A stretch of 64,000 nucleotides of DNA from Eledone cirrhosa (Eukaryota): NCBI GenBank assembly GCA_964016885.1, contig OZ024741.1, positions 207,886,001-207,950,000 of the forward strand, written 5' to 3'. Made by a program: the position numbers and the translations under genes. Positions 3,928 to 50,117 of the stretch are shown here, one piece after another (the first letter of the stretch is position 1; each line of letters starts with the position of its first letter). The notes under the pieces were generated by a model that had not been told where the DNA came from, did not search any database, and worked only from the letters and a program-made list of their open reading frames with translations.

Positions 3928-3929
<2 letters not shown>

Positions 3930-6177: not shown

Positions 6178-6702
<525 letters not shown>

Positions 6703-7046
6703 TTTATATATATATATTATATTATATATATATGTATATATATATATATATATTCTTATATATATATATATTATATATATACACACATATATATATAATA
6801 TTATATATATTATGTTATATATATATATATATATATATAGTAAGGTGCAAAATGGTCCAATAAATTTATGTTAGCAATATTAAGTTCTCCACGCTTTAGT
6901 ATATCTCCAATTCCATTCAAGAGAACAGCTAGATGATGTAAAACAGAGTATAAGTATCAAAATGAAATCCGAAGGCAAGGTAAAATTCCAATCATTTAAT
7001 CACGACACCTGACCCAAAACACATTCACACTACTACACACACATGA

Positions 7047-7262
7047 AAGAACAAAACAAGATCTAAGGCCGTTACATGGTTTAACGCGCCGTATTCTAAG
7101 CATGTATGCAGCAATGTATCAGGCCTCTTTTTCCGAGCGTTGGACGAGTGCTTCCCGCCGTCGAACAGATACCACAAGATTTTCAACCGCCACACGGTGA
7201 AGTTTTCCGTCTCCGCAGCACCTAACATGGCCTACTACATGGCCAAAACTAACGCGGCGAAG
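7047..7262 (+). mobile_element. PLE coding fragment (RT-to-endonuclease linker, Naiad-like)
   Basis: Frame absent from the ORF track: KNKTRSKAVTWFNAPYSKHVCSNVSGLFFRALDECFPPSNRYHKIFNRHTVKFSVSAAPNMA, resembling the WFNPPYS..KIFNRNTVKVSYS linker of PLEs. Confidence 0.8.
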
Positions 7263-7792
7263 ATGTATATGTTCACCTTAAATGATTATATGTTCACCTT
7301 AAATGTGTGTGTATAGCGGGAGTCTATGCGTACGACTGTCGTTATCTATGTGTGTGTGTGTGTGTGAGTGCGCGCGTGGACGTGTGAACTACCAAACCCA
7401 GCAGTAATTCATTGAAGTGTGGCAGGTACGGTGGTCAGCCAAGCGATACTTGTGGACGTAGACACCTAGTGGCCAATAACAGGTGGCACGAAGAGGATGA
7501 AGTTTTTGTGACTAATACCCCAGTGAAAAAATTTGCTCCGAAATCTTTAGAAGTGTCCGTCGAGCCTGCGGATCCAGAATCAGAGAGATCCACACAATGA
7601 TCGCGTCTCGAGCTGTCCGCTGGCGAAACAATTGTAACACACAATAAATTGAGTTCAGATGCATCACTGATTTTTCGTTTTCTATTCTAACATACTCTGC
7701 TCTGTAGGAGCATAGAATGCTCAACCGGCATACCTCCTATGGAAGCATCTTAGCTACCATCAGACACACACACACACACATATATATATATT

Positions 7793-8068
7793 TCGTTTCT
7801 GAATTTCTTTATCTGAAAACGTGTGTTGAAACCGATAGGAGAGGCACAAAAACAAAGAAAAGAATCCCCAGTCACTGAAGAGGTCACAGAATGTGTGACG
7901 AAAGAATTTTGACAATATATGAACAACCGTCCGGTTTTGGAACCAACCAACCAATCAGAAATTTATAAATTCTTAAATTTATAAATTTAATTTATAATAA
8001 ATTATAGTGAAAGCTACTGGTGCATGTGTTTCTTATTGGCAACATGAGACCTCCTAAAGTATAACAAT
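7793..8068 (+). mobile_element. PLE pseudo-LTR family B: inverted tail plus truncated pseudo-LTR, HHR at 7871-7913
   Basis: Matches the 57050-58440 arms. HHR: GTCA-CTGAAGA-G-GTCACA gaatg TGTGAC-GAAA-GAAT-TT-TGAC. Confidence 0.8.
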
Positions 8069-8199
8069 ATATATATATATATACATATATATTTACATAC
8101 ACATATATATATATATATATACCTATATATATATATATATTTATATATGTATATACATACATATACATATACGTATATATTTATATATATATATACATA

Positions 8200-8840
8200 T
8201 GTATGTATACGTACATACATATATGTATACAGACGTACAGTAATATGTATATATATACATACATGCACATAATATATATGCACGTATCGGTTTACTGAAC
8301 ATTTATTATAATGCTCGGTTTCTTTGTTTGTAAACAATTTAAGTAAGTGCCGTACTAAGAGTGAGAAATGAAATTTTGTTTCATTCTATTCCATTTATCG
8401 TTTTCGGTGTGCTCGGCCGACTGAACTCACTCGATATGCAAATGAGGTTGCTCAGCCGTTAATATGCATAAGGAAAGTATATACTTACAGACGTTCAGCC
8501 ATCTGGCAGGAAGGTATACGATGCTGACGATAGCCAATAAGCATGAAACTAGTACATCGTTCCTGTGTCAGTGTTGAACAAAAAGGTGAGTTGGTTGCCT
8601 AAACACTGTACGGCGTAATTCGGGCTGTTTGTTTGTTTACAAACAAACCGATCATTATAATAAATGTTCGGTAAACCGATACGTGCATATATATATGTGT
8701 GCATGTATGTATATATATACATACTACTGTACGTCTGTATACATATATGTATGTACGTATACATACATACATACTTACATTTAAGTAAGTGCCATACTAA
8801 GAGTGAGAAATGAAATTTCGTTTCATTCTATTACATTTAT
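8200..8840 (+). mobile_element. Retrozyme-like element (442 nt period) with inverted 5' segment and ~49 bp flanking duplication
   Basis: Direct repeat starting at 8341 and 8783; 8200-8337 is an inverted copy of about 8630-8770; 8151-8199 equals 8841-8889; second copy at 40354-40970. Confidence 0.75.
8518..8560 (+). ncRNA. Minimal type I hammerhead ribozyme (GUA site)
   Basis: ACGATG-CTGACGA-TAGC caataa GCAT-GAAA-CTAG-TA-CATCGT: perfect 6-bp stem I, palindromic stem III, weak stem II. Confidence 0.75.
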
Positions 8841-9141: not shown

Positions 9142-9360
9142 TATATACATATATATATATTCATATATATATGCCAGCCATCTCATGAGCAATTTGATGT
9201 AGTGCATTCAGGTGAACTTTGATCGAAAAGACATCCAAGGCATTCCACACGTAACAATCCAGTCTTCTCAACCTCTTAGGTCTACATTATAAAATGTAGT
9301 TGCGAAATTCAAAGAAATTTGGCTGCGATACTTAGCAGATAGAGCAACCATATATATTTA

Positions 9361-9460
9361 CAGGGTGTCCCCCAAAAATGTACACACACTTCAACAGCAT
9401 TCTAATAAATATTGCCTATGCAGGTAATCAAATTTGGAATAGATTTTTTTGCGGACACTG
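9361..9460. mobile_element. ~100 bp Tc1/mariner-type MITE
   Basis: TA-CAGGGTGTCC..GGACACTG-TA termini; related copies at 11529-11628 and 12341-12414. Confidence 0.7.
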
Positions 9461-9569
9461 TATATTCTTTATATAGCTGTGATGAGTCTTGTTATGCTCG
9501 TGCTTCACCTGTATACTCACAGAATCAATTATGTTCATACATATATATATATGTTTAATATAGAAATGG

Positions 9570-9625
<56 letters not shown>

Positions 9626-9630
<5 letters not shown>

Positions 9631-9783
9631 CGAAACATAAGTCAATTGCATGAACTCATAATCCTTTATTTATTGCTATATATATTTCGATGATAGCCAT
9701 TGAATGGCTATGACCTCACCAGGCAGTTAGTCAGTTCTTAGAAATGCCAGCTCTATGTTTTTGGTGTTGATGGTATCAGAGCC
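9626..9783 (-). mobile_element. (TA)n-flanked insert with degenerate HHR (9673-9726), family E
   Basis: Minus strand TGC-CTGGTGA-GGTCATAGCCATT c AATGGCTATCATC-GAAA-TATATA-TA-GCA; related to 37858-38080. Confidence 0.55.
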
Positions 9784-11419
9784 TATATATATATATAGAC
9801 ATAGATAGATAATATCGTATATATTATATATATATATATAAGGATAATAAAATCTTTAAAGATATTTGTTTTTTCCATTCTCTCTCACACGCACATTACA
9901 ACTTCTCTCTTACTCTCTCGTTCTGTCTTGAACTCTCTCTCTTTCTTTAGGTCTGTCTCTCTATATATTATTTTTTCATCGGCATTTAAACGTCAATGAC
10001 CTTGTATACTTTTATATCACAGAACAATTAACAAATATAGGTTACACTATAGGTGTAAAGGAGGGTGAGAAGGAGTATAGGGAAGGGTGTAGGGGTGGTA
10101 CTCAAGATGGCATCTATGCTACTGTGACGTCATTGATCTTCTACAATTTAATTACAAGTAGATTAGAAGAATCACTTGAGAATTCCTGAGAAGTTTTGTA
10201 AGAAGGAGGAAGAACTCTTCATTTGTCTATGTAAACTATGTATGTAGGAGTTTTGTGTACATACACACAGAGACACACACCGTCACATACAAAAACATAT
10301 CCACACTGGCACATACACAGATACACGCACATACACATCGACACACAAATACCCACACTAACAAATACACAGACACACACTCAAACACACGCATATACAC
10401 ACACACAAACATACGCACAGACACACACATATAAGTGTATGTATTATGTATGTATATATATACACATATTGTTACATACTTATATGCATGTATATACAGT
10501 CTTTATATTGCGACCATACCGGGTCGCATATAAAAATACACATATTTTTATAAGAGTATATGCATGTATATATATGCCTTAAACAGAGACCAATGCTTAC
10601 ATCTAAATCTCTACCATTTCACACACCTATCAATACAAATACATGCATACACATACACTCATATATATGTCCCGGTTGTGTCGCGGGAATCTGTGAAACA
10701 TACCATCTTTATCTGTAGGAGGCTATGTTGTAGCCAAATCTCTCTCAAATCACACATTGCCGTCTTTAAAATAAACACATTGGATAATCTTAGAAATCTG
10801 TTTGAATAAAAGTTATTTCCTAGAGTAGGTCCTATTAAACATATATGGAGACATAATAACATAACAAAACTGCTTTACATATGGTGACTCAGTTTCCGGG
10901 AATTCGAGGAAAGTCACTATAGTACACGTGTGAACATCTTCCATCTTTCTTAGAAAATTGCAAAATGAAAATATACTATAGAAATTTATAATGTACACAG
11001 ATCACCATAAGTTTGAAACTAATTTTCAAATATGTATACATGTCATAACTGACAATAGAGTATTAATTATCAAAAGAGCATTAACAAATGATTACAAACA
11101 TGTAGAAGTGAGCTAAAAAGCTACGACATTCCACCGAATTAGCATTTAAATTAAAGGGATTATAGCAGGTAAAGAGTCCCATTTCAAATTGATACAACTG
11201 GAATGATACAAAACCACTTACTGTAAATACATATGGCTGTTTACTTATAAGGATAGACATAGATTCGTTCCTGAAAATATCAATCCTAAGATCTGTAAAT
11301 AGGGTTAGGTTATTCTCACAGGGCATTTGTAAACCTTGAAAATGTTTTTTGCATATTTTCGAATGACTACCTTAGAGGAAAGGAAACTTACATATGTATT
11401 ATTGTGAAATTGGTGTACT

Positions 11420-11451
<32 letters not shown>

Positions 11452-11476
11452 CTCTCTCTCTATCTATCTCTCTCTC

Positions 11477-11526
<50 letters not shown>

Positions 11527-11528
11527 CA

Positions 11529-11628
11529 CAGGGTGTCCCCGCAAAACGTATATCCACTTTGATTTCCTGTTCAAGCAATATTTATTAGAAAGCTGTTGAA
11601 GTGTGTATACATTTTTTGGGAAACTCTG
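11529..11628. mobile_element. Tc1/mariner-type MITE copy
   Basis: cagggtgtcccc..gggaaactctg; interior is the reverse complement of 9361-9460. Confidence 0.65.
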
Positions 11629-12005
11629 TGTATTTCTTGAATCAAGAAAAATGTTGACAATGTAAATAACGAAATATAATTAAAAAATTACCAATAATAA
11701 TAAAAATAACATCAACAACAACAATAATGAAATAATAAACGATAACAGAAGATATTAACGAACAAAAACTTCATTCAATATATATATATATCCAGTCAAT
11801 ATACATAAATATTTTAATTAATATACATAACTATATACATATAATATACAGACACAAAGCAAATATTTCGATTTTTCTGTAAATGATGCAGCATATTTAA
11901 GTTAAGTTGTATATACATGTATGCAAATGTGTTAATGTATGTTTACATACATATTACGTATACAAGCTGATTGTTGTTTGTGTGTTTATGTATATGTATA
12001 CAATA

Positions 12006-12137
<132 letters not shown>

Positions 12138-12340
12138 GCATATATATATATACACACACACATATATATATATACATATATAATTGTGTATGTATGTGCA
12201 TGTGTGTGTGAGAGTGCATCTGTGAATGTGTACACAAATTTGCTTACACATGTGTATGTAATTAGACATCCATAAAAATTATGCATACATACATTTTATA
12301 GACACACATATAAATAAATATATATATATGTATACATACA

Positions 12341-12414
12341 CAGTGTCCCCAAAAATGTATATACTTTTATGAGAATGCTGTTCAAGTGAGTGTATATTTT
12401 TGGGGGACACCCTT
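12341..12414. mobile_element. Tc1/mariner-type MITE copy (internally deleted)
   Basis: cagtgtccccaaaaatgtat..tatatttttgggggacaccct. Confidence 0.6.
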
Positions 12415-12810
12415 TATATATATATATCATGAAAATTCGCCAGAAATGAAATGTATAAGTGAAATTTCTGGTTGAGATTGTTTCCAGTGTTTATTATACT
12501 GCTGTTATGTGGTTGATAACGTTTTTTAACCCCAGGTCAGCCCTGTTTGAGCATTACAACGATCATGTGTTATTGATATTACAATGATTCTGTTTTGGAG
12601 TTCATAAAAATTAAACCAGTGTTCATATAAAACAAATCAGTTCTTTTTTTAATTTTCAATTCTATTCTTTCATTTTAGAATCAATTGTAAAATTGTTTTA
12701 AAAAAAAACTTTCAAAATATTTGGCAGAGCAGATTCCGTAATATAGCATGCCGTCTTCTTCAAATGGATCGTACACACTCACATACACACATTAACACAT
12801 ATGTATTTAG

Positions 12811-12899: not shown

Positions 12900-12907
<8 letters not shown>

Positions 12908-13108
12908 TAAGAGGAATTCCAACTTTGTCTGATTTACTCGTTTTATTTACAATCCTTTAACATTTATAATAAAACGAGTAAATCAGACAAAGTTGGAATT
13001 CCTCTTATTAATATAATCTTCTATACACAATCATACACACCCGTGTTTATGATTGTGTATAGAAGATTATATTAATAAGAGGAATTCCAACTTTGTCTGA
13101 TTTACTTG

Positions 13109-13110
<2 letters not shown>
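12900..13110. repeat. Double fold-back (A, A', B', B, A) between (TA)n runs
   Basis: tattaataagaggaattccaactttgtctgatttact occurs forward at ~12902, reverse at ~12977-13013 and forward at ~13070. Confidence 0.9.
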
Positions 13111-14352: not shown

Positions 14353-14459
14353 ATATAAAAGAGTGATAAACACAGATATATACATATATGTGTTCAAATC
14401 GTAAGGGACCAGATTGGAACACATATACGTATATATCTGTGTTTATCTCTCTTTTATAT
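14353..14459. repeat. Hairpin, ~48 bp arms, 11 nt loop
   Basis: atataaaagagtgataaacacagatata..caaatc / gattgg..tatatctgtgtttatctctcttttatat. Confidence 0.8.
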
Positions 14460-16472: not shown

Positions 16473-17687
16473 CTATGGATAACCACTTCGTTTTCGTCGC
16501 CGGAAGAGCTTGCAGACTTCCTCCCGGACTCTGTCATTAACAATTCCATAGACAATTGGATTGCTGGCATTACCCAATAAAAAGAGATATCTTAATATAA
16601 GACTATTTGTGATGCCAAATATATCTAACCAAAATGGCACCCAAGCGACGATATAGATGATTGTACAAAGGAACAACATCTTAGCTGTCCTGTTATGATG
16701 CATGGAGCGCCTTTTGTCAGAGAATTTTCCATGTGTTTTGCACGACTCACCGGATTTCGTGCTTTTCCTGTCGCCGTTCGAGGACAGTGGTGGCGTAGGG
16801 GATTGAACCCCAGAATCAACATCGGAATCAACGGATGGTGTGAGCTTTCGAGCGTTGTTCAGAGTACAGCCTGTGGAATCGGACATCTCGTCGAAATATT
16901 TCTTTTTCTCTGTACCAACACTGGGCGTAGAACGATCAGAACTGCTGTTGCTACTGCTGGAACTGGTTGGTATTCCGAGAGGGTTCGACAATTTCTTTCT
17001 GAGCTGAGCTTTTTTCCATAATTTTGTGTAAATGAGGGTATAAAGTACAACAATACTGAAACAGGCAAGTCCGTATGATAAACTCAATAAAGCTTGGTAA
17101 GAGCGAGTCCCTATTTCTCCAAGAAAGGACATTGTGAAGTGGCAGAAGGGTGGGTTAAGTACATTCATGATATTTTCAGTACAATTACCGCTGTTAATGG
17201 TATAAGGACCAGGAACAACGGCGAAAATAAAAACCGATGGAATTGCTAGGACTACACTGATAACAACGATGACAATCATACCTTTGTTTACCTGTGATAA
17301 GCTCAAACGTCTGGTTGGTCGCCTTACAGCAACACAGCGTTCTAGCGCAATGGCCACTAAAGAAGCGTTCGATGCCATGATGCAAAAATGGCGGACTACT
17401 TCGAAGCTGTGACATATAGCGTCAGAGGTAACACCATGAAGCTCGTATACGATCGTATAAGGCATGACAAACATACACACACAGAGATCAAGCAAGGCTA
17501 ACACTCGGATAAACGTGCTACTCGATTTGCGGTCCCGTTTTTTCAGGTAAACAATTAGAATTAGGACGTTACCCACAGTGCCAACCAGAGCGTAAAGGGA
17601 GATAATCACTGATAGAATGTACTGTTCGAGAGACCATTCTGAATAGGTAACTGTCATGTTGCATTTTGTGTCCGGGTGAATATCCAT
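16473..17687 (-). CDS. Class A (rhodopsin-like) GPCR, peptide-receptor-like orphan, 404 aa, uninterrupted CDS
   Basis: Seven hydrophobic segments; TM1 GN, TM2 LALLD, Cys at the top of TM3, ERC in place of DRY, TM6 AWVPF, TM7 NPIVY, helix 8; long Ser-rich third intracellular loop. Confidence 0.95.
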   Translation of the reverse strand: MDIHPDTKCNMTVTYSEWSLEQYILSVIISLYALVGTVGNVLILIVYLKKRDRKSSSTFIRVLALLDLCVCMFVMPYTIVYELHGVTSDAICHSFEVVRHFCIMASNASLVAIALERCVAVRRPTRRLSLSQVNKGMIVIVVISVVLAIPSVFIFAVVPGPYTINSGNCTENIMNVLNPPFCHFTMSFLGEIGTRSYQALLSLSYGLACFSIVVLYTLIYTKLWKKAQLRKKLSNPLGIPTSSSSSNSSSDRSTPSVGTEKKKYFDEMSDSTGCTLNNARKLTPSVDSDVDSGVQSPTPPLSSNGDRKSTKSGESCKTHGKFSDKRRSMHHNRTAKMLFLCTIIYIVAWVPFWLDIFGITNSLILRYLFLLGNASNPIVYGIVNDRVREEVCKLFRRRKRSGYP

Positions 17688-18884
17688 TGTGTTAAAAGTT
17701 TAGTTTATACAATTTACACGTCGAAAATGTTTTTTAAAATAAATATAAATTGAAAATCCTGATAGAAAATCAATTCAAGTTGTTTGTTCTTTTACTTGTT
17801 TTTGTAAAATATTTCCAAAGTAGATAACTTAAAATTATGTATGTACGTATAAAAATGATTTGGTCAGGTGTATTTTTTAATTTACAAATTACTGTGCGTA
17901 TGTGCTTCTTCTCCTCCTTCTCCTCGTTTGCTGTTGATGATGCTGATGATAATGATGACAGATTCCTAGTAGAGTTTTTCTTTTTTTTCTTTGTTAGCCA
18001 AGTTATAAAACTCTTTCCCAGTAATTTAATGATCGATATATTGATCTGATTATTGTTTTTTTCTTACTATATTTGATTAAAGTTATTGTTTAACTTAATT
18101 TTTCATTCTTTCCGTCTTTTCTGAAATAAATTGCAAATAATTCAAAATGCTCGATTTAGGATATTATCAATATCTTCATTAAATATATTTTGTTGTTGGG
18201 TCCTTCGTTATTGCCACAGAATAAAAGTAATTCCCTAATTGTTGTTGTTATTATTGTAGATATTATTCCAGGAAATCTGTGAGATATTCCTTCTGTCGAA
18301 CATATAATAAAATCATCAGGTAAACTCCAGGACGAATAATGAATATGAAAAAATATCTAAAATAAAAAAAAAAAAAATGAAAATCACATAAAGTAATGTA
18401 TGGGTGCGTACGTGCATGTATGTGTGTGTGTGTATTTACGTATGTCTATGTATAAATATCTGTTTGTGCATGTGTCTATGTGTATGTTAATAAACAAATT
18501 TTAACTGCAGAAGATATTGGAAAATACCAATTCTAGTATTGTACTCCGGCGTTCAAGTCCATCAGTAGTAGTAGTAGTAGTAGTAGTAGTATTTCGGAAA
18601 TTTTCTCCGAAAAATTAAAATGTTGCTGCTTTTTTTTTTTTTACTTGTTGCCTGGTCAAGTGAGACTGTGCGACTGAACTGGTCAGTGGTGTCTGGCCAA
18701 ATATAAAATAATATGGTTTGGTCAACCAATCAGTTTAGTGGTTATTTAGAATACAGTTGAAACTACTAATGGTGACAGACACACGTCATAGAAAATATTT
18801 AAGGAAAATATCAGCAATTAACTTAGACATTTAAAAAATAAAGCAGCCAATAATACAGCAAAATGTAAATACTATAACATAAAT

Positions 18885-21275: not shown

Positions 21276-22086
21276 CTTTCTTTATTAACCACAAGGGTCT
21301 ACATAAAGTAGACATTAAGGACAGTACAGGACAATACAGGGCGGTACAAATGGGTATTTCTGCGTGTAAAAAACAAGAAACAGAGGATGTAATAATAGAA
21401 CAATGAAAAAATTCCCCAATAGGGGGGAGACTTCCGAGGGACATTCGTGGAGAAAGCCCATTAAAAAGCCACAGTGACCCTGACCACCAGGGCAAGTGCC
21501 CTCTCCCAGTTTTCCACCTTTAATTTACAGACACATACTCAGAGTAGGCCCATTCACTCGAGCCATTCTTGCCTCTCTCACCCATCTTTCAACAAAATGC
21601 TGGGAAAAGAGCACTTCCCTTTCTACCCTGATTTTCCTTTTCAAATGAAATTTGAAAAAGTTAATCAGGGCATCACCGAAGAGGTAAGTGCTCGTCTTCA
21701 GCCCTTTCAAACGTGTCCACCATACTATCTCTTTCGCCATGGCCACCAGACAGATAAAAACTGCCTGCCCTTCCCGGCTAAAGGAAGAGGGCGGGGCAAT
21801 CCTCACGATGGACTCAGCTGATAGCCGGATCCGTCCTACACGCGACAGCAGGTGTTCGACATAAACCCACAAGTCAGCAATGCTCGGACACTGGACGAGT
21901 GCGTGCAGGACAGTTTCGTCGCCCTGCGCGCATCTCGGACATGCCCGGCTGACGGCACCTCCATGCCTGTAGAGTTTATCCCGAACTGGCAAAGCTCCTC
22001 GGTAGCTCTGCCAGGCCAGGGATTTCTGGAAGTTGCCCCGGCCCGAAAGTTCTTCCGAAGAGATTGGCTAGTTGATTTTTATCGAC
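21273..22086 (-). mobile_element. 5'-truncated Tx1/L1-clade LINE 3' end within an (AAT)n tract
   Basis: FQKSLAWQSYRGALPVRDKLYRHG..CPRC..ETVLHALVQC (C-terminal zinc finger of ORF2); 3' UTR ends aataaagaaagc(att)n; (aat)n on both sides. Confidence 0.85.
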
Positions 22087-25034: not shown

Positions 25035-25065
25035 ATATATATATATATAATATATAATATATATA

Positions 25066-25247
25066 TGGTGGATTGGCAGTATCGGTAGAGGGTCGGACGC
25101 CATGCTTTCCAGCATAGTTACGTCCCTTTATGATCTGAGTTCAAATCCCGCCGAGGTTGACTTTGCCTTTCATCCTTACAGGGTCGATAAAATAAAGTAC
25201 CAGTAATACACTGGGTAATTGCTGGCCTTGTGCCTAAAGTAGAAACA

Positions 25248-25248
<1 letters not shown>
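25066..25248 (+). mobile_element. tRNA-derived SINE, full length
   Basis: A-box-like TGGCAGTATCGG, B-box GAGTTCAAATCC, core ctttgcctttcatcctt..gggtcgataaaataaagtaccag; at least 7 copies in the window. Confidence 0.88.
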
Positions 25249-25289
<41 letters not shown>

Positions 25290-26650
25290 CTCCAATTTTC
25301 AAAAAGGGAAACAAGAGAGGTTCTTCCAATTACAGAGGGATATCCTTGCTCTCTCCGGTAAAGTCTAAGTTGAGTGACTGGCAAATAGATGCAGGGAGAT
25401 TGTCGAGGCGAAACTGAGGAACAGTGTGGTCTTCAGTGACCAAATATTCAAGCTACTGCAGGTCTTCGAGAAATCGTGGGAGTATTACCAAGAGGTACAT
25501 TTTTGATTTGTCGAACCTGAAACGTCATATGACCGCGTTACTCGGGACTTGCTGTGGAGGATTCTGAAGAAGCATGGAGTCGATGGTCAGCTTGTTGCTG
25601 TCCTGATGTCTCTATACGAATGCCCGAGTATTTGTGTTCGAATAAATGGTGCTAAATTGAAACCATTCAATGTGGGGGAGGGGGGGATCGGACTCCGCCA
25701 AGAGTGCGTACTATTACCACGCCTGTTTATAAATCCCGCCGAGGTTAACTTTGCCTTTCATCCTTGCGGGGTCGATAAAATAAAGTACCAGTAATGTACT
25801 GGGTATTTGCTGGCATTGTGCCTAAAATAGAAACAATTATTTACATGAACAGAATTGACATGCACAGCCGGAAGTGATATCATGATTGTCGAATGGAAAT
25901 TGCAGACGACATGGTGTTATTTAACTCGACAGAAGGTGATGTCCGACTGGCACTCGATAGGTTTAATGATGAATGCTGCATGGCTGGAACGAAAATCAGT
26001 GCTTCGAAAACTGAGACAATCATCCTCTCAAGGAAGCCTGCACAGTTCACTCTGTAAATAGAGTCCCACTGAAGCACGTAGAGAAGTTTAAGTATCTCGG
26101 GGCCGTGGTCATTAGTGATGAAAAGCAGGAGATTGAATTCTGTGCAAAAATGCAGGAGCTGATACAGTAGTGCGCCAGCTTCTGCATTCAGTATTCAGCA
26201 GAAGGGAGGTAGGTGTATAAGCCAAACTCGCAATGTTCAATTCAGTATTCGTTCCAACTCTTACTCGTGTCACAAATCTTGGGTAATGACCGAAAGAATA
26301 CGTTCGCGAAAACAATCCGCCGAAATGGGGTTCTTCAAAGAGGTCTTTCGAGTAACGTTACTCGATACAGTGCGTAGCTCTGAGATCAGAGTTTCAATCC
26401 AGGTCTACCTGGATTGACTCTCTGATATTTCTCCGAATTGAGAGATTGCAGCTTCGATGATATGGACATGTGGTTAGAATGTCTTGGAAAAGAGCCGCTT
26501 GACATATTTTATGGGCTAAACCAACCGACAGAAGACTCAGGGGTAGAGCCCGAGCAGCATTTATGAGCTTAGCTTGTCTGGCTTGGGGAACCAGCCTGAT
26601 CAGTTGGAGACGGTTGCTTCTGACGGGATCCTCTGTAAGGAGTGTTTGAC
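25290..26650 (+). mobile_element. Degenerate RTE-clade LINE RT region, interrupted by a SINE
   Basis: EEQCG..DQIF..EKSWEY..SYDRV..LLWRILKKHGV..GLRQECVLLPRLFI..ADDMVL..KISASKTE..VEKFKYLG. Confidence 0.85.
25731..25840 (+). mobile_element. 5'-truncated SINE nested in the RTE
   Basis: aaatcccgccgaggttaactttgcc..tagaaacaa; the RTE frame resumes after it. Confidence 0.85.
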
Positions 26651-26965: not shown

Positions 26966-27124
26966 AAAAATATATGGGATAAACTACTGACGTGTAGTGC
27001 TTTGCTTCGCTAGAACCTGCTTATCATCAGGAAGTTACAACGTAACAACTAATATAAACAACACTCTTCTGCAACCATATATATATGTACTACCAAGACA
27101 CGAATTGAACCATCAGCACAGTTG

Positions 27125-27357
27125 AGGTATGTCATACATCAATTTATATATTTTATCTGATGAGGACGTACTGAAAAAACAGAACAGTACCTCCAAAATA
27201 TATATAATAAAATATACTTTGATTACATTGAATATCTATATTTATTAATATTTCGAATTAATATTAATAACTCCGGAAAACTTTTCTCGTTGAGTGCTTC
27301 TAATTTATTGTAAAACTATATTCATTGATTAATCAATGAACCTTGTTTAACTTTTGG

Positions 27358-27360
<3 letters not shown>
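27125..27360 (+). mobile_element. PLE pseudo-LTR family A end with tail; HHR 27149-27214 (GAAA mutated to AAAA)
   Basis: Homologous to the reverse complement of 43742-43970. Confidence 0.75.
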
Positions 27361-27415
<55 letters not shown>

Positions 27416-27417
<2 letters not shown>

Positions 27418-27695
27418 TTTCTGAATTTGTTTAGCAAGATTCTTTATCTGAAAACGTGTGTTGAAACCGATATTGTTATACTTTGGGAGGGTCATGTTGC
27501 CAATAAGAAACACACGCACCAGTTGCTTTCACTTCAATTTATTATAATAAATTTATAAACAACCATCTGGTTGTGGAACCAACCAACCAACCGGAAATTT
27601 ATAAATTCCTAAATTTATAAATTTATTATAATAAATTGAAGTGAAAGCAACTTGTGCGTGTGTTTCTTATTGGCAACATGACCCTCCCAAAGTAT

Positions 27696-27701
<6 letters not shown>
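27416..27701. mobile_element. Inverted pair of PLE family B ends in (TA)n
   Basis: 27416-27559 minus strand with tail; 27560-27701 plus strand ending at agtataacaat. Confidence 0.85.
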
Positions 27702-27726
<25 letters not shown>

Positions 27727-27769
27727 GCTATCGAAACGGCCGGAGCTCGGCCGTCGTGATCCTGAATCT

Positions 27770-27813
<44 letters not shown>

Positions 27814-28381: not shown

Positions 28382-28417
28382 TCTTAAGGTTTCGGACGTT
28401 AGTCCTTCATCAGAAGG
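28382..28417 (-). ncRNA. Degenerate minimal HHR of Penelope pseudo-LTR type
   Basis: CTT-CTGATGA-A-GGAC taac GTCC-GAAA-CC-TT-AAG; stem III is mismatched. Confidence 0.5.
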
Positions 28418-32965: not shown

Positions 32966-33639
32966 GGGAGATATGATGTGAAGCTTAAAAAAGACACTTG
33001 TGAGCAAGGTAGTGTCTAAACAACATTTGATAAATAAATTTAAAAGGATATAGGAGATTGGAAAAGGGAAAGGAAGGGGAGAAAAGTAAGGAAGATGAAG
33101 AAAGGAAAAAGAAAAAAGAAGGAAAGGATAACGGAGGAAGATTATAAGAAGGAGGAAGGAGAGAGAAAGAGAGAGGAGAGACAAGAGAGAGAGATAAACA
33201 TTTAAACTGAGAAACGCTGTCTCACACAGAGAAATGACTGAAAAAAACGGTTGTAAAATTTATAAATAAATTAAATAAATTAATAAGATTTTAAATTTAA
33301 AAGTTAATGAGGTTTATGGATGATGATGCTTATGATTACAGATATAGAAATTAAGTATACTATTTATTTAGGGTTTAAATAGTGAAGGATTTATTAAGAA
33401 GTGCAAAAATTTATTAAAAAAAATTATTAAGATAAAATTAAGTGAAATAAGATAAGGTGAATGAAAATAAAGTTAGATGATTTATTAGCATAGAAGACGA
33501 TATAGGGTCCTAGTATGTTTCAATAGATTGTAATATAAAAAGTACACATCAAACTTTATTAACAACGAAGGAACATACTGAACAGGATGTAGTTATTCAA
33601 AAGATTTTAAAAGTTTTGCTGGTATATTTTAAATTTTAC

Positions 33640-34012
<373 letters not shown>

Positions 34013-34050: not shown

Positions 34051-35916
34051 ATATTTATTAAATAACAGATTAAAGTTTAAGCAAAGAATCGCTGCTTTCA
34101 CCCTTAACGGGATCTTCTGAAACTAACAAAGTCAATCTGTAAACGCAGAACTGGATATTTCAAAAAACGTTGCAACCGGAGGAAGACAGGAAGACGATAC
34201 TTTGGTTCGTGGTAACGTTCGCTGGCAAAGAACGGGAAAAAACGAATAATACGTCATTAATAGGAGCGGTGAAAAACAATTACGCGCAAAGACAAAACCA
34301 CGTTTATGGTATAAAAGAGGTCGTAGACTAATGTTCTCTTAGGTGGTGCATAGAGACGTTCTCTGGCAATGAACGAAAAAACGAAGATAATAAGTCATAT
34401 GTGGAGCGTGGAGAACAATAGCACGCAAAGACAAAACCACGTAAATGGTATAGCAGAAATCGTAGACTAAAATTCTAACTAGGAGACCAAATGAATCTCC
34501 GCTACAGAGTTAAGAACAAAGTAAATAAATACAATACAGATGTAATAGGAACAAATAAATACATACACGCAAACAGATACGTACATACACAAGCATACGC
34601 AAAACCTTACCAAGGGTATACAAAACCACGCACATATAAATATGTGTGTGTGTGTATGCTTGTGTCCAAATAAATAAGTAATTATATAAACGTATATAAG
34701 CAAATAAATACGTATATAACAAGCGCACACGCATACCTACATATAAATACACGAATGTTCGGAGACGTAAGTCAACTAAAACAAGAAGTACACATATACA
34801 CACACCCACCATACGTACGAACCTGCACACTCACGCGGACGCAAAACTCCCGTATACACATAGCCAAACCCTAAATACCAGAATATGTAAAAATTATACG
34901 CTATAACAGTCAAATATACGTACGAGAAGGTATACATACCTTCACAAAACATACGGGTAATATATACTTACCTATGCAAATAAGTAAAGGAATAAACAAA
35001 ACATATACTTAGCTCCCACATCAAGACGTAAAATATCCACGTATAGATCGTGCTATCCGTTAGGGTATAACGTGGGGCTGTAATACAGGAAAGTTTTGTG
35101 CAATTTATGTTTACAAGCCGAAATTGCCTCAGATTTTTTGTTTAAGATGTGGTCTGTAGCGTAGAGTATTTCCAGGGCCTCAGCGGCGCAGAGGTCACAT
35201 GGTCTTTTATTTCCGTTATACGATCTAGCCCTAGCTAGGATCTCCCAGTGTAACTTATATTGGGTGTGGTTGTCTTTTAGACTCCAGATATAAGCTGAAA
35301 GTGACGTCATATTCCTTCTTAGAGGGTAACGAAAAGAGTGGGTATGCATGTAAAGACGCTGCTTGAAACTATTGGCGGTTAACCCTATGTAGGCCCTGGT
35401 CTCCTAGTTAGAATTTTAGTCTACGATTTCTGCTATACCATTTACGTGGTTTTGTCTTTGCGTGCTATTGTTCTCCACGCTCCACATATGACTTATTATC
35501 TTCGTTTTTTCGTTCATTGCCAGAGAACGTCTCTATGCACCACCTAAGAGAACATTAGTCTACGACCTCTTTTATACCATAAACGTGGTTTTGTCTTTGC
35601 GCGTAATTGTTTTTCACCGCTCCTATTAATGACGTATTATTCGTTTTTCCCGTTCTTTGCCAGCGAACGTTACCACGAACCAAAGTATCGTCTTCCTGTC
35701 TTCCTCCGGTTGCAACGTTTTTTGAAATATCCAGTTCTGCGTTTACAGATTGACTTTGTTAGTTTCAGAAGATCCCGTTAAGGGTGAAAGCAGCGATTCT
35801 TTGCTTAAACTTTAATCTGTTATTTAATAAATATTTGCTCTACGGTTCTTATATATTTGATATATATTTTCCTTATCGAGCCCTCTTTGGATTTTAGTCT
35901 TCAATTTTATTATTAT

Positions 35917-35919
<3 letters not shown>
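34051..35919 (-). mobile_element. 5'-truncated PLE (Naiad-like GIY-YIG end) with inverted pseudo-LTRs
   Basis: Arms 34051-34489 and 35397-35834 are almost identical in inverted orientation; tail 35835-35919. Minus-strand AYIGLTANSFKQRLYMHTHSF..TSLSAYIWSLK..CDLCAAE..LNKKSEAISACKH. Confidence 0.92.
35761..35811 (+). ncRNA. HHR-like motif with variant core; mirror copy at 34074-34124 minus
   Basis: AGTTT-CAGAAGA-TCCC gttaa GGGT-GAAA-GCAG cgattct TTGC-TT-AAACT. Confidence 0.6.
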
Positions 35920-38080: not shown

Positions 38081-39224
38081 ATATATATATATATCGATCA
38101 GAGACAACATTGTTTCAATATATCGGACTGAGTGCCAGTTAGTAAAGGTGGTACCGGTTTCACCATTCAATGTTTTTACGTGGATTGCATGCTCAGCGCT
38201 AAAAAGTGTGGATTAACACCGATATATGTTTGTTGTTGGCAGAGTGTTTATAATAAGAAAGAGATCAGTTCAACATGGTTCAATCGTAATCAAAACACCA
38301 ATGGAGGATGAAATTGAGAGGTGACAATTGTCAAGCGTCATTTACGTAGTTAATTTCTTTGCTCGAAAGAACAGCACCGACTTTAAAAAATTGGCTTAGA
38401 TATTTCTAATGAGCGAGAGGAAAGGAAAATGGCCCTGCTTGGAATATCCTTGATTGTTAGTCTACATATTCAGGGTTGATATGTGGCTAAACAACAACCG
38501 GCCTTTGAATCGATATATGCTCGTAACTAATGTGTTTGTGTTTTGCTCTTTCACGCAGATGGCGTCAGTGAGGAGTTTATTCACGCCAGTATATATTATA
38601 ATATAGTCGTGCCTCATGCTTAAGGCTCATCAGGCTGGAGTTTAACTTAAATTCGTGTGGCTTTAAGCTACAGAAATATACGACTCACCTCTAGACGACA
38701 TGCCAGTCTGTCGCAGGGTTAACCACCAACTTTTTGTGTATTATATTTTTATTTTTTAGCTGAGTTCATAAGGTTGTGGTATGAAACAACATACCACAAC
38801 CTTATGAACTGGGGCGTATCACTCTAACGTTAACATATATTTACTTAATGCTACTCTCATCACTATAACAAGTAAAGTAAAGTCCGAGGACATTAAATAA
38901 CGGCAAAGCATATCCGAATCTCTTGCTTTCAAATGCCAAAATAATAAAAATAATATCAAATATTAGTCAATGACTAATATTGTCTTATTCTACGCTACAC
39001 AATGATGGTAGCAATAGCTGTATAATAATATATACGTTGATCCTTGACTGACATTGTTTGTTGAGCTTTTACATGAAATGGAAACTTGAGGGATTTTCAG
39101 TGTAATAAGTGCAGGGCGAGTAATGGATATTTGCCAACAGTAATAAGTGCAAGAACAACACCGAAATATTCTAAATCAATATTCTGCCGTCAGTGTAATT
39201 ACATGCACACACCTAGCCCCATCC

Positions 39225-39299
<75 letters not shown>

Positions 39300-39306
<7 letters not shown>

Positions 39307-39367
39307 ACTCGAACTATTTCATTTGAAAGAAATTATCAGAAAAGCTTATTGAACCCTGCATACATAC

Positions 39368-39398
<31 letters not shown>

Positions 39399-39858
39399 TG
39401 TATGTATGTATGTATGTATGTATGTATGTATGTTTGTATGTTTGTATGCATGTATGTATAGAAGGATGAATGGATGGATAGCTGTATGTATACATACAGA
39501 AATATATATATATATATATATATATATAACGAAGGAAATGTGGTACGGAACCAGATGGACCATAACGCACCAAAGAACTCAATACTTAGGGTAGTAGAGT
39601 GGGTAATAGGAACGAGTAGGACCCCGACGGCTGAGCTCAAGCCGTTTCGACGGCTAATTCTGGACTAAATATTTAGTGCAGAATGTTTAGTCCAGAATTA
39701 GCCGCCGAAACGGGTTGAGCTCAGCCGTCGGGGTCCTACTCGTTCCTATATATATATATATATATATTTCTGTATGTATACATACGGCTATCCATCCATT
39801 CATCTTTCTATACATACATGCATACAAACATACAAACATATATACATACATACATACA

Positions 39859-39921
<63 letters not shown>

Positions 39922-39985
39922 GTATGTATGTATGTATCAGCTTTTCTGATAATTTCTTTCGAATGAAACAGTTCGAGTCCACACA
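39300..39985. repeat. ~690 bp palindrome: inverted family K pair at the centre plus mirrored flanks
   Basis: gtggactcgaacta..tacagaaa (39300-39502) mirrored at about 39767-39985; K arms 39528-39670 and 39686-39748. Confidence 0.88.
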
Positions 39986-39997
39986 CACACACACACA

Positions 39998-40073
<76 letters not shown>

Positions 40074-40323: not shown

Positions 40324-40353
40324 CGTATATATATATATACATATATATATATA

Positions 40354-40970
40354 CAAACACACCGAGCATTATAATAAATGTTCGGTGAATCCATACGTAC
40401 ATATATATATGTGTGCATGTATGTATATATATACATACTACTGTACGTGTGTATACATATATGTATGTACGTATACATAATTATTTTTAAGAAACAGCCG
40501 TACTAAGAGTGAGAAATGAAATTCCGTTTCATTTTTTCCGTTTATCGTTTTCGGTGCGCCCGGCCGATTAACTCATTCGATATGCAAATTAGGGTGCTCA
40601 GCCGTTAATATGCATAAGGAAAGTATATACTGTCAGACGTTCAATCATCTGGCTGGAAGGTATACGGTGCTGACGATAGCTAATAAGTTTGAAACTAGTA
40701 CATCGTTCCTTTGTCAATGCTGAACAAAAGGGCAGCGATGGTAGCTAAACACTGTACGGCTTAATTCAGGCTGTTTGTTTACAATCACACCGAGCATTAT
40801 AATAAATGTTCGGTGAATCCATACGTACATATATATACGTGTGCATGTATGTATATATACACATACTACTGTACTTACATATATGTATGTACGTATACAT
40901 ACTTATATGTAAGTAACAGCCGTACTAAGCGTGAGAAATGAAATTTCGTTTCATTTTTTTTTTCCGTTCA
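40354..40970 (+). mobile_element. Retrozyme-like element, about 1.4 monomers (428 nt period), HHR at 40664-40706
   Basis: accgagcattataataaatg at 40361 and 40789. HHR: ACGGTG-CTGACGA-TAGC taataa GTTT-GAAA-CTAG-TA-CATCGT. Confidence 0.78.
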
Positions 40971-41104
40971 TATATATACATATATATAAATATATATATA
41001 TATATAAATATACATATATATAAATATATATAAATATACATATATATAAATATATATAAATATACATATGTAAAAATATATATTTTTTCCGTTTATATAT
41101 ATAC

Positions 41105-41150: not shown

Positions 41151-41428
41151 ATACAATGCAACGGGAGGAAACAATAGCAGCACTGACGATGTTGCAGATG
41201 TGCAACGAAATAACTTTGATAAACTATATTTATGTGTTTGTGTCTATATTGTATCTGTATTATTTTTGATCGTTGGTCAGTCAATGGCAACATTAAGGAC
41301 CGAATAAATTAGATTACCGATATAAAAGACACAGAAGTGAAAAGCGAAAACCAACCAAACAGTGAATGTGTTCTGTTATTAATTCTGGCAATATTACACA
41401 AATATGACCCTCCCCAAGTATAACAACA
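41151..41428 (+). mobile_element. Pseudo-LTR family B' with HHR at 41181-41220
   Basis: Homologous to 58787-59054. Confidence 0.8.
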
Positions 41429-41449
41429 TATACACACATATATATATAA

Positions 41450-43504: not shown

Positions 43505-43638
43505 TAGGAAAATGTATGACCCCGACAGCAGATCTCAAGCCGTTTCGACGGCTATTTCTGGCCACACTACTACCCTCAGAATTGAATACTCTGGTGCGTT
43601 ATTGTACTTCTGGTTCCTTACCACAACTCCTTCGTTTT
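43505..43638. mobile_element. Inverted composite of family K ends
   Basis: ataggaaaatgtatgaccccgac.. joined to the oppositely oriented tail ..ccacaactccttcgtt. Confidence 0.7.
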
Positions 43639-43741: not shown

Positions 43742-46700
43742 TATTAAAGAGTTAAACAAGATTCAATGAGTACATCTAAGACTGAGTTTACAGTAGATTG
43801 GAAGCACTCTATTAGAGATATTTTCCAGAGTTATTAATATTAATTCAAATATTAATAAAATAGATATTCTTGTAATCAATTAAATTTTATTATACATATT
43901 TCAGAGCTATTGAATCAAGTTCAACAGTACGTCCTCATCAGATAAAATAAAATGATACATGACATACCCTGACATGTTAGATGGTTAAGATTTAATCAAG
44001 GTAGTGATTAACTTATGAGAAAACTCAATATTTATACCCTAATATTGAGAACATGCGAAAACATAATAGAGACAGTGTGAGTAAGAAAAACATTGCCTTA
44101 ATGCAACAGTTATAGAGTTTTTAAAATTTGAAATACTACTCTAGAACTGTAGAGGAAGACGTATCTGGAGTTATAATTTATTTAGTATTTAGCTTGAGAA
44201 TACAACTGACAGATAATTAAAGAAAGGGAGAGACAATGGGGAGTAATTTATGCTCAAATTTTCTTTGGACACATAAACATATATAGCTCTGGCGGTTAAA
44301 TTTCAAAATAGTTAATTTATGTTATTTTAGGGTAAAGAATCAAAATTTTAGGTTTTAAAAGTTGATGGTTATTTGTATTAATTTTATAATATAATTGTGT
44401 TAAATTTCTAAAATTCAAAGTTTTATGAAAACAAATTTTAAGGATATACGAGGCCCGCGAAAAAAGAAATATTCAATATTCTTACAAAGGTAATCTTTAA
44501 CAAAATTACTTATAACACTGACAACATTTTCTATAATATAATTTATGAGATATTTACAGTTATAACTATTAAGGAATTTATTGTTAAATAGTTACAGTGC
44601 CTAAAGTATTAGCAGGTCTTATAATTAAACCTAAAGAGGTCAGAGTTTTCAGCTATATATATATATGTGTGTATTGATCATAATATCAAGACTATAATTT
44701 GTTATCTGTTCATATATTATATTAAGTCATTATATTAGTTCTACCTTCTAGGGAAGACCGAACTCTAATTATGATTATGTTATTATACAATATAAATATA
44801 TTTCTACAAACTATATATAGAGATATATCCCGAACTATAATTATGATTATGTTATTATACAATATAAACATATTTGCACAAACTATATATAGAGATATAC
44901 TAAGTATTAATGAGACGGTATACATTTAATAAAGAATAACTATTATAATCTTTGTTAGTAGTTTCGTACATGCGTAACTACGATTATGTTATTACACTAA
45001 ATAAAGATATTTGCACAAACTATACATTGATATACTAGATATTAATAAGACGGTATATATCCAATAAAACATAGCGATTAGAAACACTGTTAGTAGTTCT
45101 ACCTCCAGTTCAGTGGAGATATAAACCAATATTTGTCTGCTAATATTGTTTGTTATAAATACATAAAAAGCAAAGCGTAAAGCCAACTTTCTGAGTCTTC
45201 AAAAACCATCTCCAAATGAGTAAAATACATATATATATATAAAATACATACATATATATAAAAATGTAAACGCATGAATGATCCACAGTTCAAATTAAAG
45301 TCAGTAAAATTTACAGGTTAGATATCTAAACTATATATTTAAAATAGAGATAGAAAAATAAAGATCTGAATCAAAGTTTAAAATATCCAAAAAGCCATAG
45401 GTTATGCATATCCAACCTGCAAACAATTTATTAAACAAGTGTCACTCATTCAAACATTATTTCAATTATAAATGATTAGAAGATAAAGCATTATTAAAGC
45501 TGTTATGATTTATATGTTCAACAGTTGATGATGTACGTCTAAAAACCAGGCTTGGTTGCTTACTGTTTTTTCCTGACTTTATGCGAGGCTTGGAATGTAG
45601 ATAAAGCTTTATGAAGGCAGTTTGAGAATAATTCACTTTTTTGTTAATTAAGTTTTCATAAATATTAATTATCAATAGGGTCTCCATTGTACAGAGGGCA
45701 CAGTTACTTGATATACTTGAGTTGCGGTAAACTCCACTATTACAAAGTTTCGTCCAAAAGATCGAGTATTTTAAATTTTATAACTGATTTAGTTCTGGTT
45801 CTTTTCCTCGATTTGTTCACAGTATAGGTGTTTGAATTATAATTACTAGAATTTATAGAATTTCGTTTATATATGCCATTATTTTTATCAGGATTAAAAC
45901 TTGGATTATTATTATCTACATATTCTATATAATTCTCAAAACCTGCTCTTTTTAGCGCTTCATTGTAATATCCTGCATTTTCATCAAATATTGCTTTATT
46001 GGCAGATATTCTATTAATGCGTTTTTGCACACTATTTACAATTGCTTTTTTTACTGACTTAGGGTGATTGGAGTAATAACTAACGTAATTTAAGTTTTCA
46101 AAGGGTAATAAAAGCCAGAGTTTAAGTTAAACGTAACTTCAAGGAAATTAACTATTTTGGTACCACTTTCTACTTCTAGCTTAAGGTTTTAAAGAATTCA
46201 ATTATATTTTTCTTTACTCTATTTAGTTCAATATCGTTGTGTTTGACAACCGTAAATAAAATGTCGTCCCTATATAAACCACCGGTAACCTCCGGCAGTT
46301 TTCTATTTATCATATTTAATATGAAAATCCCCAGAAGATCCGTGATTTGCGCTGAATCAGATGACCCATGGTAATATCAAAATTTCTATTTCTATCTGAG
46401 CGGGTCCAATACTCATTGACGAGGTTAATAAGAGTTCTTCTAGCTGTTAATATGATATCAATTTCATCCGTGGTTAGATCAGTATGCTTGTAAGCGTATG
46501 ATAGAGCCTTATTTAGTAGGTTGGGCGTTATGGAAGAATAATAGCTTGTTATGAATTTACGGTTTTTCTTATCATCTATATTCAATGACTTCGTTTGTAT
46601 CTTTCCACAAGCTCAATTTAGACCTCAATTTCAGAGCAGGTAGAATTCTATCAATAATGTTTTTACTGATTACTCAAATATCCGATTTGGATGGAGAAAT

Positions 46701-47820
46701 TCTAACTGGCAGGTCTTCCTCGAAGTTTCTTTTGTGATCTTTTAAGTTGATCCGCGGCTGTCTAGGTATAAGTGGCTCTGTTCTTCCTTCGATTCCTAAT
46801 TTGGTAATTAATTTATATGCATCATCATTAATGTCTGTAAGATCATCAGCCGGGGCTTTTTTTATAATTTTTCCTAACTTAATCATAATTAGAGTTCGGT
46901 CTTCTCTAGAAGGTAGAACTAATATAATGACTTAATATAATATATGAACAAATAATAAATTATAGTCTTGATATTATGATCAATACACACACATATATAT
47001 ATATATATATAGCTGAAAACTCTGACCTCTTTAGATTTAATTATAAGACTTGCTAATACTTTAGGCAATGTAACTATTTAACAATAAATTCCTTAATAGT
47101 TATAACTGTAAATATCTCATAAATTATATTATAGAAAATGTTGTCAGTGTTACAAGTAATTTTGCTAAAGATTACCTTTGAGAATATTGAATATTTTTTT
47201 CTTTCGCGGGCCTCGTAAATACTTTAAATTTGTTGTCATAAAACTTTGAATTTTAGAAATTTAACACAATTATATTATAAAATTAATACAAATAACCATC
47301 AACTTTTAAAACCTAAAATTTTGATTCTTTACCCTAAAATAACATAAATTAACTATTTTGAAATTTAACCGCCAAAGCTATATATGTTTATGTGTCCAAA
47401 GAAAATTTGAGCATAAATTACTCCCCATTGTCTCTCCCTTTCTTTAATTATCTGTCAGTTGTCTTCTCAAGCTAAATACTAAATAAATTATAACTCCAGA
47501 TACGTCTTCCTCTATAGTTCTAGAGTAGTATTTCAAATTTTAAAAACTCTATAACTGTTGCATTAAGGCAATGTTTTTCTTACTCACACTGTCTCTATTA
47601 TGTTTTCGCATGTTCTCAATATTAGGGTATAAATATTGAGTTTTCTCATAAGTTAATCACTACCTTGATTAAATCTTAACCATCTAACATGTCAGGGTAT
47701 GTCATGTATCATTTTATTTTATCTGATGAGGACGTACTGTTGAACTTGATTCAGTAGCTCTGAAATATGTATAATAAAATTTAATTGATCACAAGAATAT
47801 CTATTTTGTTAATATTTGAA

Positions 47821-47829
<9 letters not shown>
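43742..47829 (-). mobile_element. Degenerate PLE (Naiad-like RT, endonuclease partly deleted) with ~940 bp inverted pseudo-LTRs
   Basis: Arms 43835-44777 and 46880-47829; tail 43742-43834. Minus strand: LKDHKRNF..SPSKSDI, FDITMG, GGLYRDD (~46265-46285), SNHP..YNEALKRAGF, CALCTME..LINKK/SELFSNCLHK. HHRs at 43884-43949 (-) and 47715-47780 (+). Confidence 0.92.

Positions 47830-47877
<48 letters not shown>

Positions 47878-50064: not shown

Positions 50065-50112
<48 letters not shown>

Positions 50113-50117
<5 letters not shown>

Follow-up and report, generated by a model that had tools for sequence, protein, structure and literature searches.

The insertion at positions 27416-27701 lies in a 64-kb stretch of DNA (here, the window) which is ~35% GC and rich in (TA)n and other microsatellites. 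Its left arm is a minus-strand 3'-end piece of repeat family B that reads through ..ATAACAAT, which we call site X, and continues for a further 54 nt to ..CAGAAACG, site Y, where (TA)n follows. The right arm is a plus-strand piece whose last letters are ..ATAACAAT, with (TA)n beyond. Throughout, X is the proximal site that ends a tail-less arm, Y is the distal site and the tail is the stretch between them. The two arms were found to be identical at 89 of the 90 nt over which they overlap, and at their junction they share 2 nt exactly, or 6 nt if one mismatch is allowed. A 9-bp palindrome in this insertion belongs to the element itself and is located 13 nt off the junction. Copies of A, B and a K-like family abut at 27087-27773 in a single (TA)n cluster, a target hit repeatedly by different families, and a well-formed hammerhead core at 28390-28413 (-), in a short fragment between microsatellites, is possibly another Penelope-like piece.

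Other features are also found in the window. An intact single-exon ORF of 408 aa at 16473-17699 (-) belongs to the rhodopsin-family GPCRs (PF00001, E 1e-28) and marks the window as animal DNA, and a LINE C-terminal fragment with zf-RVT (PF13966) is located at 21525-22067 (-). A short repeat of about seven copies (25058-25285, 25731-25842, 48264-48411, 53775-53965, 59093-59266 and 63368-63743) has an appearance that we take to be SINE-like, and its copy at 59093-59266 truncates the tail of the 58464 pair. The repeats at 33640-33912 and 62319-62590 are 96% alike, end in a hairpin and CTAG before (TA)n, and are presumably Helitron-like. Related short inverted-repeat fragments adjoining TA occur at 9350-9447, 11526-11630 and 12340-12416, and we assume these to be pieces of Tc1/mariner-like MITEs.

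Identity of the elements

Judged from their sequences, the elements appear to be Penelope-like, with B probably Neptune-like and both A and the 34051 element probably Hydra-like. Inverted pseudo-LTRs with an optional tail, a feature of Penelope-like elements, are present. The Neptune clade is described as having a CX2-5CxxC linker, a CCHH motif around the GIY-YIG domain and (TA)n targets (PMC8557442). A GIY-YIG domain was detected in family B at 57510-57791 (PF01541, E 1.3e-7), and a CX4CxxC linker with two Cys plus His residues that were picked out by eye from its translation fits the Neptune CX2-5CxxC and CCHH patterns. This placement of B is by motifs alone, the RT having been truncated away in the window copies.

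For the Hydra clade we used the RWK motif, DKT, the CxCX5C linker and (TA)n targets as features. The corresponding motif stretches are absent or lost in the window copies of A and the 34051 element. The broken ORF of A and the endonuclease fragment of the 34051 element match proteins of 720-800 aa, most of which carry RW[KR], DKT or CxCX5C, and among the 11 relatives of at least 480 aa we observed RW[KRP] in seven, a CxC-x-C linker in six and DK[TS] in nine. The A ORF has 123 relatives which tile it; eight long ones gave one weak RVT_1 and one weak GIY-YIG match, both below the cut-off, and the A fragments themselves matched none of the five RT families scanned. The 34051 fragment has no Pfam match and matches the C-termini of RT-bearing relatives with E down to 2e-18. 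No homologues of the B endonuclease or the A RT fragment were found among longer proteins, and the protein-atlas matches are unnamed clusters that serve as leads only (GIY-YIG in 15% of members, score 0.93; RVT_1, 0.88). With the tail considered as a possible ORF start, the N-terminal 130 aa of nine relatives gave no match in the tails. A degraded Hydra-like ORF fragment spanning the RT thumb to the linker, without a pseudo-LTR, was noticed at 7059-7304 (+).

A hammerhead core motif was also observed, with 11 of its 17 matches located, in element sense throughout, in B, B', A, C and G. Rfam gave a hammerhead match below the gathering score in C (E 0.19) and none in G or B; in the whole-window scan, among 150 of the 321 matches listed, nearly all were microsatellites against microRNA models and none was a hammerhead. 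K and the 34051 element have no canonical core. The latter has a hammerhead-shaped fold at 35767-35810 (+), identical in both arms, with CAGAAGA as its core instead of CUGAnGA. Around X and the hammerhead, B' and B are ~83% alike. Families K, C and G are without a coding partner in the window and were assigned by anatomy, in C and G together with the hammerhead core and in K, with neither ORF nor canonical core, by anatomy alone.

Two fixed ends and their pairing

Both arms of ten insertions named beforehand were mapped by local and multiple alignment and 30 outer ends were tabulated (Table 1). The preliminary description had portrayed these as pairs of outward-pointing pieces, and all ten were indeed found to consist of one tail-less arm, which stops at X or no more than 7 nt from it, and one tailed arm. 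Its view that the ends are fixed also held: X is the identical nucleotide in 4/4 tail-less arms of B, and Y is identical in 4/4 tailed arms of B and 4/4 of K. The ORF can be attached to either arm as had been proposed: 57050 and 34051 carry it on the tail-less arm, 43742 on the tailed one. The tails measure 54 nt in B, 78 in K, 85 in the 34051 element, ~91 in A, 71 in C and ~37 in G (the last read from the alignment).

Table 1. Positions of the putative Penelope-like pairs and unpaired copies
Feature	Position	Strand	Description
Focal family B pair, tailed arm	27416-27559	-	starts 89 nt upstream of X, passes X, 54-nt tail to Y, then (TA)n
Focal family B pair, tail-less arm	27558-27701	+	stops at X, then (TA)n
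Pair G	6296-6704		left arm (-) with ~37-nt tail followed by (GA)n(TA)n; right arm (+) tail-less
G, right arm		+	tandem unit ~305 nt; hammerhead core 6537-6560
Family B pair 7793	7792-8068		
7793, left arm	7792-7837	-	tail only, from 2 nt before X; internal deletion of 13 nt
7793, right arm	7837-8068	+	tail-less; hammerhead core 7875-7903
Pair C	8198-8840		
C, left arm	8198-8337	-	tail-less
C, right arm	8338-8840	+	tailed; full 442-nt tandem unit beginning 8 nt downstream of X of the preceding unit; hammerhead core 8524-8548
Pair 34051 (probably Hydra-like)	34051-35919		
34051, left arm	34051-35396	-	tail-less; endonuclease C-terminal fragment 35056-35397
34051, right arm	35397-35919	+	tailed, 85 nt
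Family K pair 39528	39528-39748		left arm (-) tailed; right arm (+) tail-less; near-symmetric centre, 7-bp palindrome at 39671
Family K pair 43505	43505-43638		
43505, left arm	43505-43561	-	tail-less
43505, right arm	43562-43638	+	tail only; begins 4 nt after X; no overlap or microhomology with left arm
Family A pair 43742 (probably Hydra-like)	43742-47832		
43742, left arm	43742 to ~46878	-	tailed; broken RT-endonuclease ORF
43742, right arm	~46878-47832	+	tail-less
Family B pair 50113	50112-50308		
50113, left arm	50112-50238	-	tail-less
50113, right arm	50236-50308	+	tailed; starts 18 nt before X; 3-nt overlap at junction
Family K pair 56845	56840-56963		
56845, left arm	56840-56868	-	tail-less
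56845, right arm	56868-56963	+	tailed; starts ~17 nt before X
Family B pair 57050 (probably Neptune-like)	57048-58439		
57050, left arm	57048 to ~58109	-	tail-less; CX4CxxC linker and GIY-YIG endonuclease; hammerhead core 57216-57244 (-)
57050, right arm	58110-58439	+	tailed; hammerhead core 58189-58217 (+)
Family B' pair 58464	58463-59092		13-bp palindrome in centre at 58748
58464, left arm		-	ends 7 nt before X
58464, right arm		+	runs into tail; cut off at ~59093
Unpaired K copy	3929-4066	-	tailed
Unpaired A copy	4322-4558	+	tail-less
Unpaired A copy	27087-27358	+	tailed; ends in (TA)n adjoining focal insertion
Unpaired K-like fragment	27727-27773	+	tail-less; immediately right of focal insertion
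Unpaired C partial tandem	40352-40971	+	tailed; hammerhead core 40670-40694
Unpaired B' copy	41151-41429	+	tail-less; hammerhead core 41183-41210

Small departures from these ends were observed. A few Y ends of B and K tailed arms have one or two additional A or T, the last 2-3 bases of the left arm of 56845 do not match, and copy 4331 ends ~3 nt before X. The 58464 pair has a tail-less arm that is 7 nt short of X, and its far end is cut at ~59093 by another repeat so that a tail of at least 34 nt is visible. Read 5' to 3' from either flank, every arm is antisense from its 3' end, which is the geometry of target priming. The unit of family C runs on past Y, and Y is therefore internal in the template. 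X offers 2-4 nt of TA-like homology.

With microsatellites masked, inverted self-matches within 6 kb were surveyed, and this census added two pairs with hammerhead cores, C and G, both of which are X/Y. The overlaps of pairs 7793, 43505 and 50113, which have tail-only arms, are too small for the census and these pairs come from the separate mapping. As counted within the 64-kb window, all 12 inverted pairs are discordant, with Y located 37-91 nt past X, and no X/X or Y/Y pair was found among them. Six unpaired copies were also identified, three ending at X and three at Y, and therefore the two sites seem to be used at similar rates. The preliminary list was thus sound for its ten members and had left out these six copies and the two census pairs. 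As an inverted tail of the A copy at 4322, the segment 4215-4325 was rejected, as 18 to 161 of 300 shuffles score equally high.

Several census palindromes (3013-3482, 4926-5047, 14356-14456, 33542-33760, 38763-38810, the 9350-12416 fragments and shorter ones) were kept out of the count because they are without a hammerhead, an ORF or two outward ends abutting (TA)n. Those at 3013-3482, 4926-5047, 14356-14456 and 38763-38810 are fold-back palindromes and MITE-like. One of them, 14356-14456, is symmetric and has (TA)n on one side; if it were Penelope-like, it would speak against the pairing rule. At 12902-13110, a three-piece zig-zag palindrome between two (TA)n tracts misfits the two-arm pattern; one of its pieces ends at a ..TTAATAT site, two pass beyond and meet tail to tail, and neither hammerhead nor ORF was found in it.

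Under independent choice of ends, 12 discordant pairs out of 12 have a probability of 0.5^12 = 0.0002, or 0.0015 conditional on 12 X and 12 Y ends, in a sample of 12 events from one 64-kb window. X and Y are defined solely by the pair itself in the 34051 element and G, and one end alone is fixed by other copies in C and B'; these four pairs are therefore consistent with the rule without being independent tests of it. For the eight pairs of B, K and A, where both ends are fixed in other copies, the corresponding values are 0.004 and 0.02. X also seems to be more than the best TA-like site, because the B reference has four alternating-TA sites of at least 4 nt of which a single one is used by 4/4 tail-less arms ((1/4)^3 = 0.016), and because longer TA runs near X are ignored in B', A, C and the 34051 element. 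Folding of X-70 to Y gave no structure common to X or Y (z 0.4 to -2.2 with base shuffles), the value of -6.1 for C being driven by its repeats.

The arms might instead have been primed independently on separate RNAs, with X or Y taken at random and the discordance due to small-sample luck or to the loss of symmetric pairs, a reading that we consider quite improbable. It would let arms overlap without strand displacement, it agrees with single-family pairing tests that are not significant (conditional B 0.23, K 0.4), and no strand bias of the start site was seen in vitro (PMC11167929). However, it is opposed by the 0 concordant pairs among 12, and it leaves unaccounted for the tailed arms that end near X. 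Symmetric pairs might have disappeared from the genome or the assembly, but long near-perfect inverted arms (438 nt with one indel in 34051, and ~950 nt) persist in this assembly.

Inner junctions and coupled priming

Both arms of each pair belong to the same subfamily and are 94-99.8% alike, not identical, with outer ends at fixed sites. No (TA)n was observed at any of the 12 inner junctions and private variants are common to both arms in 57050, 39528, 56845, 58464 and 43742; therefore, each pair appears to result from one event. Private variants are uninformative for the focal pair because copy 50113 is equally close. That two unrelated insertions entered the same (TA)n, or that the pairs are assembly chimeras, has already been largely refuted by these observations and is hardly credible, even though insertions crowd into the (TA)n tracts here, as the adjoining A, B and K-like copies around the focal insertion show.

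We favour coupled twin priming at two fixed internal sites, X and Y, as the origin of these insertions, with a probability of about 0.62. The GIY-YIG endonuclease would cut both strands of a (TA)n tract and each free 3' end would prime reverse transcription on element RNA, one at X, possibly aided by 2-4 nt of TA-like pairing, and the other at Y. The two antisense cDNAs would stop at variable points and their inner ends would be joined with little or no homology, which would give the outward 3'-end pieces. Use of one site each could be explained if a dimer held a single RNA in two places, one per active site, where the dimer is a structure prediction made for another element. This one-RNA form, an obligatorily asymmetric reaction in which both break ends would be extended at once from two internal registers, is tentative and in our view falls somewhat short of an even chance. 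The preliminary proposal of priming from two template positions fits the sequence and the in vitro data of PMC11167929. The discordance of all 12 pairs is what coupling predicts, but two of the 12 junctions are palindromic and microhomology at the junctions, which the preliminary description had proposed to look for, was not above chance (1, 2, 3, 0, 1 and 1 nt at the six of 12 junctions that could be scored; mean 1.3 against 0.8 expected, P = 0.13).

The inner ends of the tailed arms lie at -2, +4, +8, -17, -18, -19, -63, -89, -275, ~-305, -438 and ~-3040 relative to the nearest X. Six of the 12 are thus within 20 nt of X (P ~0.003 under two length nulls; 0.02-0.045 with windows of 30 and 10 nt), where the 20-nt window was chosen post hoc, the lengths of the arms had been taken by hand from the alignments and every K copy is short. 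Under coupled twin priming this pile-up would be the expected trace, recognised post hoc, of a Y-primed enzyme that meets the X-primed one on the same RNA and stalls, leaving an arm that ends at X. For overlapping arms, the Y-primed enzyme would have to displace the X-primed complex or use another pLTR copy of a tandem transcript. An overlap of more than 2 nt was observed in 10/12 pairs, in line with the earlier statement that the pieces usually overlap unlike those of L1, but that contrast with L1 twin priming was overstated because half of the tailed arms stop at or near X. An arm-length correlation is not claimed since its P of 0.04 with 11 pairs became 0.14 with 12.

Fold-back self-priming was also considered, in which the Y-primed cDNA would fold back and copy itself to X, the product would be resolved there by the endonuclease or by slippage onto the end of the (TA)n, and later one-sided deletions of the centre would vary the junctions. 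Self-priming has been proposed in PMC3846280 and endonuclease resolution of the tail in PMC8557442, and the 2-4 nt of TA-like homology at X would suit this reading. The palindromic centres at 58464 (13 bp) and 39528 (7 bp) stand out from a background of mostly 3-5 bp, and the junction of 8198 has 6 bp; however, the best stems at eight other junctions are just 3-5 bp. In four of 12 pairs (43742, 8198, 39528 and 58464) the tail-less arm does not extend beyond the tailed one, being nested in it or level with it, whereas in 8/12 it reaches further upstream and holds sequence absent from the tailed arm, so in these it is not a plain fold-back copy and each would need an extra deletion. For example, ~900 nt of ORF and UTR are on the tail-less arm alone in the near-identical 34051 pair, whose arms match over 438 nt with one indel. 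The tailed arm reaches further in two pairs and two are symmetric; this 8 versus 2 split falls short of significance (P = 0.11), and the X-Y offset would be expected to produce part of it. Three unpaired copies that end at X, and starts equivalent to X that are seen in vitro (PMC11167929), also speak against self-priming, which seems unlikely to us.

The host flank of 39528 (39225-39504 and 39765-40060) is duplicated in inverted orientation, and this duplication is about as diverged as the K arms (41/43 and 73/75 identities against 59/61), which would suit fold-back. Because of this similar divergence, the duplication probably formed in the same event as the K insertion. Inverted duplications beside L1 insertions have been ascribed to break-end remodelling in a preprint (bioRxiv 10.1101/2024.12.14.628481).

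A further reading retains twin priming and replaces the dimer geometry with an asymmetry of the source locus, namely two pLTR copies on a tandem transcript. X priming would then occur at the 3' pLTR, from which the RNA would continue into a (UA)n flank and pair with the target, and Y priming at the pLTR-ORF junction. The 3' parts of the ORF are indeed on the tail-less arm in two of the three ORF-bearing pairs, overlaps would arise without displacement, and C and G are tandem units. Even so, 43742 has its ORF on the tailed arm, and no systematic difference between tailed and tail-less arms was observed (~8 versus 5 private changes in 57050, counted by eye, and none in 34051). Tail-only arms that end at X suggest a common template copy, and we regard the tandem-transcript reading as highly improbable.

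Relation to known systems

The anatomy and the two start sites have already been published. Penelope-like elements are described with a tail of 30-40 nt 'often' or 'optionally' at one end (PMC8557442, PMC3846280), and they resemble the present families in having an inverted 5'-truncated copy beside the main copy, a one-ended tail, (TA)n targets, a hammerhead motif and, at the C terminus, a GIY-YIG domain. They differ from what is observed here, where 12/12 pairs have the tail at one end, tails are 37-91 nt long and non-coding units follow the same rule. The pattern is therefore less new than the preliminary description implied, because the one-ended tail was already known. The present observations add that the pairing is strict, that it extends over two clades as well as non-coding units, and that tailed arms pile up near X. 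Our literature search, with older Penelope papers outside its reach, found no paper stating that two sites are used once each per event, and no pairing model was seen in the accessible text of PMC8969392, PMC12910113, PMC13282606 or bioRxiv 10.64898/2026.07.22.740005.

The formation of the inverted repeats and tails has been called undefined (PMC8557442), and PMC11167929 calls the steps after first priming unvalidated. According to that study, the Poseidon protein of a lizard (Anolis carolinensis) cleaves and extends both strands at AT-rich DNA in vitro, starts at two internal RNA sites which are the borders of the tail, and is predicted to be a dimer. These properties are alike in kind to the use of X and Y proposed here. 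However, Poseidon belongs to another clade, its start is said to lack homology with the target, in contrast to the 2-4 nt of TA-like homology at X, and the start site showed no strand difference, coupling being beyond the single-molecule reach of the assay; neither coupling of starts nor a model of inverted insertion appears in the text consulted. Pairing of X with Y would link the published anatomy to the published biochemistry and offers a testable prediction for this open question.

L1 twin priming, as described in PMC2912911, is similar in that both target ends prime cDNA and an inverted piece is joined to a non-inverted one. The L1 reaction uses the RNA 3' end and a variable internal site reached by annealing, whereas both sites are fixed here and at least one is internal; the pieces here often overlap and junction microhomology is not enriched. 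No poly(A), as expected from L1-like priming, was found at any of the 30 outer ends listed, and no L1-like variable second site was seen, X being fixed in B', A, C and the 34051 element despite the longer TA-like sites nearby.

If the asymmetric one-RNA form of coupled twin priming is correct, one rule would cover the inverted pseudo-LTRs, the one-ended tail, the tail-only arms and the ORF on either arm. It would span Neptune-like, Hydra-like and non-coding families, with unpaired copies as cases where one primer failed, and a retroelement would routinely use programmed internal sites for synthesis from either side of a break. For curators of poorly annotated Penelope-like repeats, the pairing also provides a boundary rule.

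The units of C and G (~442 and ~305 nt) fit the description of non-LTR retrozymes, which bioRxiv 10.64898/2026.07.22.740005 presents as non-autonomous Penelope-like derivatives. Both kinds are short tandem units that lack an ORF and have a hammerhead core, where the hammerheads of C and G are at motif level alone. The words 'tail', 'priming' and 'TPRT' do not occur in the text of that preprint. In contrast to the retrozymes as described there, the insertions of C and G are inverted X/Y pairs, as in the coding families.
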